Positions 1,264 to 35,213 of a DNA stretch of 60,585 nucleotides are shown here, piece by piece. Positions within the stretch are counted from its first letter, which is position 1. Every line of letters begins with the position of its first letter. Origin of the DNA: Thermoplasmatota archaeon (GTDB lineage: Archaea > Thermoplasmatota > JAKEGO01); contig JANQNK010000016.1 of assembly GCA_028279595.1 (NCBI GenBank), positions 1 through 60,585 of the forward strand, read 5' to 3'. The position numbers and the translations under genes were made by a program. The notes beneath the pieces were generated by a model. The model was not told the origin of the DNA. It did no database searches and was given only the letters and a program-made list of their open reading frames with translations.

Positions 1264-1461
1264 TTCTGCACTTAAACTCCGAATCCTGCCCCTAAAGTAC
1301 TCATCGAATGTGACTTTAAGGGCAAACCCGCCCACCACGGCCTTGCCCTATTATTAGGTACAATTGGAGGACTCTATTGAAAAAATGCGAATTTTTCTTG
1401 CAAAGTCCCGCAGATTATTTAAAGTTTGAAGTTGTGTGATATTTGTCACGTGGGGATTAAC

Positions 1462-1671
1462 ATGGTGTACGTATCAAGAATTCCGGGGGTGTGTGCCGGT
1501 TGTGGGAGCGGTCCGCTCATATTGTGTCGTTGGTGCATGTATTGTACCGAATGTAAGATCGACGAACTGTCTGGAGCGGGACGGAGATACCAGCCCACCG
1601 TCCACGACCTCATCATTCCGAGATATGATGACTCCATTCCAGATTATGACGACGATACCTCCCAGCTCTGA
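1462..1671 (+). CDS. small Cys-rich (zinc-finger-like) protein
   Basis: Motif CAGC-x7-CRWCMYCTEC. I prefer ATG 1462 to TTG 1426 because a TATA-like TTATTTAAAG at about 1416-1424 and GGGGA precede it. Confidence 0.5.
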   Translation: MVYVSRIPGVCAGCGSGPLILCRWCMYCTECKIDELSGAGRRYQPTVHDLIIPRYDDSIPDYDDDTSQL

Positions 1672-1872
1672 GCACGACCGCCGACCCTGATACGGCGACC
1701 GACCCATATCATCACCGATCCTCCCCGCGGGTCACCCCAACTTAATTCTGCACTCAAGGTCGTCAATAATAACACCTCGGGTGCAAGGCCGCCAACCCCC
1801 TCGATACCGATCCGCGAACCTATTAAGTATCCTTCATCTCTTCGGATAACTGGACACAAGGGGGACACTGCC

Positions 1873-22880: not shown

Positions 22881-24992
22881 ATGGGGGTGAAGTACGAGGT
22901 CCTATTGAGGAAGTGGAACGACTTCTTCAGGACGAGGGGGTATACGACTCGTATTGCTGACATCACTGACAGTTACCCCGAGGTCCAGTCGCTGGAGGTC
23001 TCCTATCCCGAGATATCCATCTACGACGAGGAGCTCGCGATGGAACTACTGGAACAGCCGCTCCGTACCATCCCCGCTGGGGAGCAGGCTCTCTTGACCT
23101 TTGCGCCGCAGGACGCCATCGACCACTTCAAGGAGATCGGGGTGAAGCTCGAGATCGGACTGCGGATAAAGGAACTTCCGCCATTGTTGTCTCGGGTCGA
23201 GGTCCGCAATCTGCGGCTTCATCATCTCAACCGTTTCATAGCGATAAAAGGTCTCGTCAAGAACGTGGTCCAGGTCAAGCCGAGGCTCTACATCGGCGCC
23301 TTCAAGTGCCTGCGGTGCGGGCACGAGACCTTCGAGGAACAGGGGCGGATGGAATACCGGGAGCCGAGCCAGTGCGGCTCTTGCGGCAAGACAGCGGGAA
23401 CGACCAAGTTCCGTCTGATCCCGGAGGACTCGACCTTCATCGATACCCAGAGGGTCGAGATACAGGAATCCCCCGAGGAACTTCGAGGTGGAGAGCAGCC
23501 GCAGCGTCTTACCGGATATCTCGAGAAGGAGATAACGGGGCAGATCTTCCCGGGCAACAAGGTGATCCTCAACGGGACGATGATGGCGACACCTCCAAGG
23601 AACCAGCGTGCCCATCCGACGACATTCAACATATACCTCGAGGTCAACAGCGTCGAGCTCGAGGAGAAGGACTTCGAGGACGTCGAGATCACGGAGGAGG
23701 AGGAGGCCCAGATCAGGCAGCTGAGCCAGGACAAGGAACTGGACGAGAAGATGATCCATTCCATCGCTCCGACCATCTACGGACTCGAGGACGAGAAGGA
23801 GGTACTCGTCCTTCAGCTCTTCGGAGGCGTGCCGAAGGTCGCTCCCGACAGCACGCGCATCCGCGGAGACCTTCACGTGCTCCTCGTCGGGGACCCCGGA
23901 ACCGCCAAGTCACAGATCCTTCTCTACCAATCGCGCCTGTCGCCCCGCGGTGTCTACGCATCGGGACAGGCGGCCACGAAAGCCGGACTCACTGCTGCCG
24001 CAGTGCCCGACGAACAGGGCGACGGAAGATGGAAGCTCGAGGCCGGCGCGCTCGTCCTCGCAGACAAGGGGATGGCATGCATCGACGAGATCGACAAGAT
24101 GGGCTCGGAGGACAGGTCCAGCATGCACGAGGCCATGGCCCAGCAGACCATCAGCGTCGCCAAGGCCGGGATAACCGCGAGCCTGCAGGCACGCGCATCA
24201 ATTCTCGCGGCCGCCAATCCGAAACACGGCAGGTTCGACCAGTTCAAGACTATGGTCGAGCAGATCGACCTTCCGGTCCCTCTCATCACACGTTTCGATG
24301 TCATCTTCCCGCTGCAGGACAAGCCCGACCCGGAGAAGGACGCCGCCCTGGCGCGGCACATCCTCAAGGCGACGAGGATAGCCGAGATCATTGCTCAACA
24401 GGAGCATGCGGGGAACGTTGACGAGATCGCCGGATACGGGGACATACAGCCCCCCATCGACAACGAGTTCATGAGGAAGTACGTCTCATACGCGAGGAAG
24501 AACGTCTTCCCGACCCTTACGGACGATGCCCTCGACCGCTTCGAGGCCTTCTTCGTCGAGATGCGGAGCCAGTACTCGGCAGGAGATTCGGTCGCGATCA
24601 CGGCTCGACAGCTCGAATCCCTGGTTCGAATCGCGGAGGCATCGGCACGTGTTCGTCTGGCCAACACTGTCGAGCTCTCGGACGCAGAGCGGGCGATCAG
24701 GATCCTCAAGAATTATCTCAAGCGTGTCGCGACCTCCGAGGACGGCACGATCGACATCGACATCGTCTCGACGGGAATACCGCGGTCGCGTGTCGCCAAG
24801 CAGAGCAAGATATACTCGATAATTCAGGACGCCGGTCCCGACGGGATCACCTGGGATGATCTGGTCATCGCCGCAAGCGATCAGGACATAGACAAGATCG
24901 AGCTCGAGATGCTCCTCAACAACATCAGGGAGGAGGGCAACGTCTACGAGCCCCAGAGGGGCGTCTACAGGACAACGCGGGGAGGCATCTGA
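22881..24992 (+). CDS. mcm: MCM replicative helicase
   Basis: Zn finger CLRC/CGSC, Walker A GDPGTAKS, Walker B IDEIDKM, AAANP, R-finger TRFD, and C-terminal wHTH. Confidence 0.97.
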   Translation: MGVKYEVLLRKWNDFFRTRGYTTRIADITDSYPEVQSLEVSYPEISIYDEELAMELLEQPLRTIPAGEQALLTFAPQDAIDHFKEIGVKLEIGLRIKELPPLLSRVEVRNLRLHHLNRFIAIKGLVKNVVQVKPRLYIGAFKCLRCGHETFEEQGRMEYREPSQCGSCGKTAGTTKFRLIPEDSTFIDTQRVEIQESPEELRGGEQPQRLTGYLEKEITGQIFPGNKVILNGTMMATPPRNQRAHPTTFNIYLEVNSVELEEKDFEDVEITEEEEAQIRQLSQDKELDEKMIHSIAPTIYGLEDEKEVLVLQLFGGVPKVAPDSTRIRGDLHVLLVGDPGTAKSQILLYQSRLSPRGVYASGQAATKAGLTAAAVPDEQGDGRWKLEAGALVLADKGMACIDEIDKMGSEDRSSMHEAMAQQTISVAKAGITASLQARASILAAANPKHGRFDQFKTMVEQIDLPVPLITRFDVIFPLQDKPDPEKDAALARHILKATRIAEIIAQQEHAGNVDEIAGYGDIQPPIDNEFMRKYVSYARKNVFPTLTDDALDRFEAFFVEMRSQYSAGDSVAITARQLESLVRIAEASARVRLANTVELSDAERAIRILKNYLKRVATSEDGTIDIDIVSTGIPRSRVAKQSKIYSIIQDAGPDGITWDDLVIAASDQDIDKIELEMLLNNIREEGNVYEPQRGVYRTTRGGI

Positions 24993-32159: not shown

Positions 32160-33125
32160 TCACTCGAGTTCCTCATCGTCGATGAGGTCCTTCAGTGCGA
32201 TCTTGACCTGGGTCTCGAGCTTGGTCTGCTGCTGCTTCAGCTGCTTGACGTCCCTCTTGATGTCCAGCAGGCCGTCGTACGTCTTCGAGATGACCTCCTC
32301 GAGGCCGAGGCCGGCCATGGTCGTCTCCTTGTACTCGAGCATGATGGGATGCCCCTTCTCCACGGTCTCCGCGAGGTCCTTGAAGGCCTCGACCATGTCC
32401 GCAAAGCCGCCTTCCATGCGGATATTCTCGAGCTCCAGGTAGTCCGCGGCTTCCATCTTCCTCGGGTTCACGAGCTTGAAGAGCTTCATGTAGTGGTCGA
32501 GCTGATCGATCTTCTTCGGCCTGACCTTGGAGGGATCGAAGACGAGGGCGACCGCGTTGGGATTCAATATCTGGTAGCCCGCATGGTTCACCCTGTCGAT
32601 GGTGGATAGGAATAGGTCGTGGCCAGGGTGCGTATGGTACCAACCGACGACCCAAAGGTCATCGGAGAGGGTAGCGTTGATCTCGTCCGAGGTCCTGTAG
32701 TGCTCGGAGGTAAAGCGGACCTCGACCTTGCTCCCGTTGGTGACCGGAACCGCGTCCTTGATGATGATCATGTTGTCGTCATCGACGTCGCCGAGGAGGA
32801 ATCCCATGCACTCGACCCATTTGCTCTGCTCGATGGCCGCATTGCAGAAACGGAATCCGTGCCTGAGTATCTTCCCCAGGGCCCTGTGGTGGATGACCGC
32901 GTCCGCTGGTTCGGTCTCCTTGCACTCGAAGTCTCCCTTGTCGTCGCCCTTGCCCTTTCCAGCGGACTTCTTCGGGACCGCCTTCTTGGGGGGCGTCTTC
33001 TTCGCCGTCGTCTTCTTTTCCGTCGTCTTCTTCTCCGTCTTCGGCGGAGTGCCCTTCTTGCCTACTGTCGACGTCGACGGCTTGGCTACCTTCTTTGAGG
33101 TTCCCTTCTTCTCGTCATCTGGCAT
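32160..33125 (-). CDS. Rpn11/Csn5-like JAMM/MPN+ isopeptidase with Lys-rich N-tail and C-terminal coiled coil
   Basis: ALGKILRHG...VECMGFLLG and VVGWYHTHPGHDLFLSTID (E...HxH-x7-S-x2-D), followed by AVALVFDP. Confidence 0.92.
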   Translation of the reverse strand: MPDDEKKGTSKKVAKPSTSTVGKKGTPPKTEKKTTEKKTTAKKTPPKKAVPKKSAGKGKGDDKGDFECKETEPADAVIHHRALGKILRHGFRFCNAAIEQSKWVECMGFLLGDVDDDNMIIIKDAVPVTNGSKVEVRFTSEHYRTSDEINATLSDDLWVVGWYHTHPGHDLFLSTIDRVNHAGYQILNPNAVALVFDPSKVRPKKIDQLDHYMKLFKLVNPRKMEAADYLELENIRMEGGFADMVEAFKDLAETVEKGHPIMLEYKETTMAGLGLEEVISKTYDGLLDIKRDVKQLKQQQTKLETQVKIALKDLIDDEELE

Positions 33126-34880: not shown

Positions 34881-34895
34881 GTCACGCACACCCTA

Positions 34896-35162
34896 TCATC
34901 GTCCGCCGGCCTGCTGACTGATGACCGTGATGGTGTCCTTCTTGGCGTTGTACTTCATCTTGTCTAGGAATTTGGAGAACACCTCTCTGTCCCGGATCGG
35001 ATGCCCCTTGAAGACGAGCTGGATGACGAGACGGTCGCTGATCTTGTACTGGCGCCGGACGAGCTTCTTGGCGTCGCCGCAAGTCGCCTTGGCCGGGATC
35101 GCGATCTTCTTCGTTCCCTGTTTCGGGGGCAGACCCATCATTCTGAAGGTATATTCTGGCAT
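34896..35162 (-). CDS. ubiquitin-like protein, pro-form ending ...QQAGG-R
   Basis: 88 aa. ATCGDAKKLV and QLVFKGHPI align with Ub DTIENVKAKI and RLIFAGKQL. The di-Gly is followed by one Arg and tandem stops. It has its own BRE/TATA. Confidence 0.85.
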   Translation of the reverse strand: MPEYTFRMMGLPPKQGTKKIAIPAKATCGDAKKLVRRQYKISDRLVIQLVFKGHPIRDREVFSKFLDKMKYNAKKDTITVISQQAGGR

Positions 35163-35193
35163 GTTCTCACTCGTGGATAATTCGGGAACCCAA

Positions 35194-35213
35194 TATTTAA
35201 ATTGATTGGTTTT
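35194..35213 (-). promoter_or_regulatory. BRE/TATA promoter of the ubiquitin operon
   Basis: On the minus strand AAAACCAATCAA-TTTAAATA ends 32 nt upstream of the Ubl ATG. Confidence 0.65.

Follow-up and report, generated by a model that had tools for sequence, protein, structure and literature searches.

A putative ubiquitin-like precursor with a variable one-residue cap in a four-gene operon of a Thermoplasmatota archaeon

The window (the whole 60,585-nucleotide stretch of DNA analysed, contig JANQNK010000016.1 of the Thermoplasmatota archaeon assembly GCA_028279595.1) carries a short gene that probably encodes the precursor of a ubiquitin-family modifier, set in a eukaryote-like operon of ubiquitin-like protein (Ubl), E1, E2 and JAMM metalloprotease, trimmed by that JAMM and bearing a variable cap after its Gly-Gly. 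The Gly-Gly-Arg cap is real but ordinary and variable, of a kind already known, and not a special device. Short variable caps, one-residue ones included, are already common in archaeal ubiquitins, which supports the view that Rpn11-like precursor processing predates eukaryotes; the cap itself teaches little new because neither its identity nor its presence is conserved. More interesting than the cap or the lysine-richness of the protein is the occurrence of the whole operon in a non-Asgard lineage, which adds a compact and experimentally tractable four-gene ubiquitin–E1–E2–Rpn11 module outside Asgard and Aigarchaeota. The features are listed in the table.

Table. Coordinates of the operon genes and of the sequence elements of the Ubl gene (positions in the window)
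Feature	Position	Strand	Basis or remark
Pro-Ubl gene	34896..35162	-	88 codons + TGA; predicted product a ubiquitin-family beta-grasp protein ending QQAGG-R
Gly86-Gly87 codons GGC GGA	34902..34907	-	Predicted reactive C-terminus once processed; aligned with the TQAGG end of the family
Cap codon CGA (Arg88)	34899..34901	-	Same codon in L005, L015 and the X2 contig
In-frame tandem stops TGA TAG	34893..34898	-	Sequence
TATA-like A/T-rich element TTTAAATATT	35192..35201	-	About 30 nt upstream of the Ubl ATG
E1-like activating enzyme, ThiF fold, 410 aa	33648..34880	-	PF00899, E 1.2e-55
E2-like conjugating enzyme, UBC fold, 178 aa	33115..33651	-	PF00179, E 1e-20
Rpn11-like JAMM/MPN+ metalloprotease, 321 aa, Lys-rich N-tail	32160..33125	-	PF01398, E 3.3e-14

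The Ubl gene and its family

Translation of 35162..34896 gives the protein that the preliminary description had read there, an 88-residue Ubl ending QQAGG-R before TGA TAG (N-terminus MPEYTFRMMGLPP, C-terminus VISQQAGGR, final codons GGC GGA CGA TGA TAG), and a residue count returns the 13 lysines it had reported (positions 14, 18, 19, 25, 32, 33, 40, 52, 64, 68, 70, 74 and 75). A 460-residue open reading frame listed in the same frame is a spurious upstream extension, as the relatives all begin at the same Met-Pro. Recoding of the TGA is rejected: the relatives end there with TGA or TAA and their codons beyond it differ. The second stop is not kept, TAG being replaced by CAG in the two closest relatives (L005 and L015). 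The TATA-like element upstream of the gene is a possible archaeal promoter, and two further relatives (L001 and L002) have A/T-rich stretches upstream of their Ubl at comparable distances. The precursor has a computed mass of 10,084 Da and a computed pI of 10.3, and its 13 Lys and 7 Arg outnumber its 5 Asp and 2 Glu; loss of Arg88 would lower the mass by 156.19 Da. Since K75 is the final Lys or Arg before the end of the Ubl, the tryptic remnant on targets would be of 12 residues (DTITVISQQAGG) and not GG.

Taken alone, the Ubl had no Pfam match at E<=0.1, and a phmmer search of the PDB with it returned nothing meaningful. Its relatives are more informative. An exhaustive search over representatives found 29 of them, and a profile search 45 further clusters; 25 of the 29 aligned relatives match PF00240 (ubiquitin; best E 3.8e-10), the Ubl itself falling below the threshold. 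Searched against the PDB, the family profile matches mono- and poly-ubiquitin chains, placing the family sequence 'lifkgkvlpd' opposite ubiquitin 'LIFAGKQLED', so that F51-K52-G53-H54 of the Ubl are the counterpart of ubiquitin F45-A46-G47-K48, and the F-K-G-H that had been read at this place is borne out; G86-G87 align with the conserved QAGG end of the family. An AF2 model built on the alignment (mean pLDDT 92, pTM 0.80) has the beta-grasp fold that the preliminary description expected, with the order E-E-H-E-(E)-H-E. Almost all of its top 50 Foldseek matches in the PDB are ubiquitin, NEDD8 or SUMO (probability 1.00, TM 0.6-0.79, up to 0.68/0.79), the best being ubiquitin, NEDD8 and SUMO2; the Caldiarchaeum ubiquitin complexed with an Rpn11 homologue (6fnn_C) is also among them. 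By its relatives and its predicted fold, the Ubl is a ubiquitin-family protein. It has no Pfam match to PF02597 or to PF02991, its relatives match PF00240 and not ThiS/MoaD, and its model opens directly with a beta-hairpin, without the two N-terminal helices of the Atg8 family.

Promethearchaeota (Asgard) MAGs account for many of the relatives, and the cultured Lokiarchaeum ossiferum for one; outside Thermoplasmata and Methanomassiliicoccales MAGs the family, as delimited by these searches, is mostly Asgard. Among 401 sampled Thermoplasmatota genomes it was found in 4, 2 of them strong matches from the window's own order and 2 weak; profile scans of contigs with the E1 and with the close-clade Ubl alignment yielded no confirmed loci. 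Two kinds of family member have an unusual architecture. In two Promethearchaeota MAG proteins of 201 and 313 residues (P0020 and P0039) the Ubl Gly-Gly is fused to a Hint (intein-like) domain that starts Cys-Phe-Ser-Gly-Asp. One might speculate that an N-S acyl shift at the Hint Cys would give a Ubl-Gly thioester, and with it a protease- or E1-free release or activation. A set of Asgard-type Ubls of 93-95 residues (P0056-P0068) has an insertion of about 11 residues (e.g. IFENFLLNCE) between 'KKDVI' and 'TVMATQAGG', inside the last beta-strand motif, and most of these end GG-F or GG-Y.

The lysine content, presented at first as unusual, is so against the genome of the Ubl (14.8% of residues versus 3.6% in the crude proteome, in the top 0.3% of crude open reading frames), and is not against the Ubl family, where the medians are 11.8% Lys and pI 9.7. 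That proteome is acidic, with 7.7% Asp, 7.0% Glu, 3.6% Lys and 5.8% Arg (Asp plus Glu 14.8%, Lys plus Arg 9.3%), at a genomic GC of 57.4%, and from it both the Ubl and the Lys-rich N-tail of the JAMM stand out. Across the family K32 is conserved in 100% of sequences, K18 in 94%, K33 in 85% and K52 in 81%. Lysine-richness and a basic computed pI are traits of the whole Asgard/Thermoplasmatota Ubl family, while the His at the K48-equivalent position is specific to the clade: 90% of the wider family have Lys at position 54, and 6 of the 7 sequences of the window clade have His or Gln there. The earlier suggestion that any chains would use linkages other than K48 is trivially correct for a protein with His54, but the position is Lys in 90% of the wider family, and the chains themselves are hypothetical.

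The operon and related genes elsewhere

The Ubl gene heads the operon, and the genes for E1, E2 and JAMM lie directly downstream on the same strand, the start of the E2 gene overlapping the stop of the E1 gene. The best PDB matches of the E1 are Uba1, UBA7 and UBA3 (1e-35 to 1e-32), ahead of MoeB and ThiF; those of the E2 are eukaryotic E2s (about 1e-14), and those of the JAMM are yeast Rpn11 (2.8e-13) and CsRpn11 (5.7e-10). Residues E105, H164, H166, S174 and D177 of the JAMM are aligned with the catalytic residues of Rpn11 (E…HxHx7Sx2D) and are invariant in 32 homologues. Many homologues of the JAMM have, in the alignment consensus, a C-terminal zinc-ribbon-like tail (Cys-x2-Cys…Cys-x2-Cys). 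The JAMM of the window ends in a charged helix-like tail without the Cys-x2-Cys motif, and the length of the Lys-rich N-tail varies among the homologues.

The order Ubl–E1–E2–JAMM recurs in L001 (GCA_028279645.1, from the same order as the window's genome), in L015, where the whole neighbourhood is syntenic, and in a 3.2-Mb MAG labelled Methanomassiliicoccales (G401), with other genes between E1 and E2. The nearest named homologues of the JAMM are labelled by their sources as Thermoplasmata or Methanomassiliicoccales archaea, and by these names the host is probably a member of the Thermoplasmatota. Another Thermoplasmata archaeon (L018, CP070672.1, 2957-4469) has an E1–E2–JAMM cluster in which the E1 was called as two open reading frames, a ThiF core of 324 aa and a C-terminal part of 146 aa, and no Ubl was found within 5 kb of this cluster. 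The 146-aa frame was considered as a Ubl and rejected, being the split C-terminal part of the E1; an 88-aa frame of the same locus and small frames of L019 were likewise rejected, having no likeness to Ubl. A limited set of papers was searched for Thermoplasmatota with JAMM and ubiquitin and none was found; a survey of ESCRT systems (mBio 2024) mentions Thermoplasmata, with no ubiquitin system there.

Neither the operon nor its flanks contain a RING gene, and a genome-wide search with PF13639 gave only one match, below threshold (20-21 bits versus a cut-off of 27.3). It falls in the N-terminal, RING-like zinc finger of a 437-aa protein (contig C18:30107-30229; locus L014:1450-2763, plus strand) which also has an RWD domain scoring 27.6 bits, above its cut-off. 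This protein is a candidate E3 or E2-variant partner of the operon, encoded elsewhere in the genome. Contig C4 carries a second JAMM, of the Prok-JAB type (22989-23291, 39.9 bits), and a SAMP/MoaD-type protein of 92 aa (PF02597; 218663-218908, L011 ORF 1498-1776, minus strand) that ends uncapped in ...PISGG; a second ThiF-type E1 is on contig C11 (128463-129029). By these assignments the genome holds a SAMP-type and a ubiquitin-type system together.

The residue after Gly-Gly and its predicted removal

That the CGA might be a sequencing or assembly error for TGA, the protein really ending at GG, had to be considered, given that one base separates the two codons and that a stop comes directly after. 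Two relatives from separate JGI samples, L005 (Ga0255055, 98% amino acid identity) and L015 (3300033143, 99%), end their Ubl gene with the identical GGC GGA CGA TGA, while differing from ours at 11-12 nucleotides each, mostly synonymously (synonymous to non-synonymous differences of 9:1 for L015 and 8:2 for L005). CGA-TGA is also present in a marine-sediment contig from an unrelated run (X2); this contig spans 34810-35054 with a single difference, synonymous and in the E1. Because the same CGA-TGA occurs in two independent JGI assemblies and in the marine-sediment contig, the codon is genuine, and no error confined to the present assembly. This comparison was made on assembled contigs, so that minor variants could be missed; it leaves out X3 and most X2 pieces, short and unlike, and gives no independent weight to the best match (X1, a coral metagenome), which is probably the source sample. 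More distant relatives too have one sense codon before the stop, and close relatives have ATC, CTT or ATT at the cap codon. At contig level, the misread stop envisaged in the preliminary description is contradicted by L005, L015 and X2, and its probability is virtually negligible. Synonymous change is also seen in a contig from a wetland metatranscriptome (X5), which spans 34940-35152, short of the cap codon, with 3 differences, all synonymous at third positions. It hints that the Ubl gene is transcribed in a close relative, carry-over of DNA in the library being possible.

Real as it is, the residue is not conserved. Conservation of the residue after GG was the check proposed in the preliminary description, and the answer is negative: within the close clade GG is followed by R (in the window, L005 and L015), by L (L002), by I (L001 and L006) or by MHV (P0007), the Ubl of the Methanomassiliicoccales-labelled MAG ends in WIFK, and about a third of the family is uncapped. 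Among 69 family sequences counted for tail length, 19 have nothing after GG, 20 have one residue (I in 6, F in 5, R in 4, Y in 2, and L, S and K in 1 each), 4 have 2-4 residues, 4 have 5-20 and 7 have more than 20, the remaining 15 having no GG or being truncated. Three of the 4 single-Arg caps come from the near-identical Ubls of the window, L005 and L015. Capping by a single residue is common in the Ubl family, but the family maintains neither the cap nor the kind of residue. A Caldiarchaeum-like second type of Ubl in Thermoplasmatota varies in the same way: one (L021; G149:C1, ORF 1450-1704, minus strand) ends ...PLDIVGG-C, and another (L022; G137:C165, ORF 1408-1701, plus strand), directly upstream of a gene for an HPN-motif E2-like protein, ends ...PLDIIGG uncapped.

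How is this pattern to be read? The cap could be a maintained checkpoint, a single residue kept so that conjugation requires an active JAMM, the eraser, as Atg8 requires Atg4. In 6 of the 7 close sequences GG has exactly one residue after it though the codon changes (CGA, ATC, CTT, ATT), a single residue is the commonest kind of cap in the family (20 of the 35 capped members), and the precursor of Caldiarchaeum resists E1 until it has been cut (PMC5654768). Yet the kind of residue varies freely (R, K, S, I, L, F or Y), the length of the cap is 1, 3 or 4 even among Thermoplasmatota-type relatives, some 19-20 family members end uncapped at GG, and the whole fits weakly constrained drift of the stop codon better than it fits a conserved device. 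We therefore regard a maintained checkpoint as unlikely. What is seen resembles drift of a weakly constrained stop codon, which the constant presence of a GG-specific protease would make tolerable, a JAMM being always co-encoded. With a residue that varies and about a third of the family without a cap, the cap has the look of a variable tail that is tolerated, not of a licensing device that is maintained, and its removal would not be the main reason why the JAMM is kept.

It is likely that the operon JAMM is the enzyme that removes Arg88. This is suggested by the Caldiarchaeum precedent, by the intact catalytic residues and by a model of the complex of JAMM residues 70-265, Ubl and Zn. The model passed with an ipSAE of 0.78 (best control 0.47), a level that 58 of 80 solved complexes and 2 of 110 mismatched pairs attain; at least 83% of contacts are common to its runs, with a partner pLDDT of 86 or more. 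The predicted interface comprises Ubl residues 7-14, 39-55 and 77-88, and the tail 81-88 contacts E105, H164, H166, S174 and D177. This pass may reflect likeness to the solved Rpn11– and AMSH–ubiquitin complexes (6FNN, 2ZNV). In Caldiarchaeum the precursor has a 9-aa propeptide and is refractory to E1 at full length, CsRpn11 cuts exactly after GG, and the trimmed CsUb is activated and conjugated (PMC5654768, PMC6043591).

Two other accounts bear on this assignment. The Arg might be removed by the second JAMM (Prok-JAB, on contig C4) or by a general carboxypeptidase, leaving the operon JAMM as a deconjugase only; the genome does encode that second JAMM, along with a SAMP/MoaD-type protein and a second ThiF, and a lone C-terminal basic residue is easily taken off by carboxypeptidase-B-like activities. 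The operon JAMM, however, is co-encoded in every relative examined, the complex model puts Ubl residues 81-88 on its catalytic residues, the SAMP of the genome is uncapped, ending at GG, and in Caldiarchaeum it is CsRpn11, and not the SAMP-type CsJAMM, that cuts the CsUb precursor (PMC6043591), all of which makes removal by another enzyme distinctly improbable. The Ubl might also be a sulfur-carrier or SAMP-like beta-grasp protein, or a non-conjugated Ubl domain, whose C-terminal residue is irrelevant to conjugation, since GG-ended prokaryotic beta-grasp proteins often serve sulfur transfer and the Ubl has no Pfam match of its own. We consider this very improbable, as the operon includes a true UBC-fold E2 and a Uba1/UBA3-like E1, the relatives match PF00240 and not ThiS/MoaD, and a separate ThiS/MoaD-type protein and second ThiF are encoded elsewhere in the genome.

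In the preferred reading, that of a modifier precursor trimmed by the JAMM of its own operon, the Rpn11-like zinc metalloprotease would hydrolyse the Gly87–Arg88 bond; the exposed Gly87 carboxylate would be adenylated by the E1 and then passed as a thioester from E1 to E2; and the Ubl would be joined to lysines of target proteins, a conjugation that the same JAMM could reverse. The one-residue cap would be a variable, weakly constrained and tolerated tail, and not a conserved regulatory element. Of the earlier proposal that the JAMM must remove the Arg to license conjugation, the JAMM as likely remover of the cap thus stands, while the requirement sits badly with a cap that is not conserved. 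A bolder picture, tentative and on balance rather unlikely, is that this lineage, neither Asgard nor Aigarchaeota, has a working eukaryote-type ubiquitylation cascade built on a strongly basic Asgard-related ubiquitin and an operon without RING, in which the cap makes the JAMM both obligatory activator and eraser, and in which K18, K32, K33 and K52, and not the K48 equivalent, are the sites of chain formation or auto-modification.

Comparison with known systems

The closest precedent is the system of Candidatus Caldiarchaeum subterraneum, which comprises the CsUb precursor, an E1-like and an E2-like protein, the srfp RING E3 and CsRpn11 (PMC5654768, PMC6043591). The two share a ubiquitin-fold precursor with residues after Gly-Gly, clustered with a Uba-like E1, a UBC-fold E2 and an Rpn11-like JAMM, and in both a separate SAMP/JAMM/ThiF set is found in the same genome (PMC6043591). 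They differ in the cap, a single Arg here against nine residues in CsUb (CGEPIRRAA), in the RING gene, which the present operon lacks, and in the placement of the JAMM gene, here co-directional and last, and divergently transcribed in Caldiarchaeum. The Ubl itself is only about 19% identical to CsUb, is strongly basic (pI 10.3) and appears to belong to another, Asgard-related subfamily, and the host is probably a member of the Thermoplasmatota and not of the Aigarchaeota.

Short tails are found in Asgard ubiquitins as well, as in the pro-ubiquitin of Helarchaeia with its four residues SPKN (bioRxiv 10.1101/2023.07.25.550441). Outside the window clade, the nearest relatives of the Ubl are Asgard PF00240 Ubls, such as NEF87_002374 of L. 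ossiferum (P0054), at 35-45% identity. With them it shares the motifs F-R-[LM]-x-G-[VL]-P-P, I-Q-x-[IV]-F-K-G and D-x-I-T-V-x-x-x-Q-x-G-G, the conserved K18, K32, K33 and K52, the basic pI, and short variable caps that include single residues (Y, K, R, S, I or F). Unlike them, the window clade has a four-residue insertion before the last strand and His or Gln instead of Lys at the K48 equivalent, and it lies below the PF00240 threshold. In L. ossiferum the Ubl gene stands alone, whereas here, outside Asgard, it belongs to a compact Ubl–E1–E2–JAMM operon.

One-residue caps are also familiar from eukaryotes, in yeast Atg8 (Gly116-Arg117, cut by Atg4), in yeast Rub1/NEDD8 (GG-Asn) and in the last repeat of polyubiquitin. 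In each of these the single residue after the reactive Gly is removed by a dedicated protease before activation by E1. The Arg of the cap is the only resemblance of the Ubl to Atg8, which ends G-R where the Ubl ends GG-R, and the Ubl has no match to PF02991. Cysteine proteases (Atg4, UCH/Yuh1 and USPs) trim the caps from Atg8, Rub1 and polyubiquitin, whereas the predicted remover of the cap described here is a JAMM metalloprotease.
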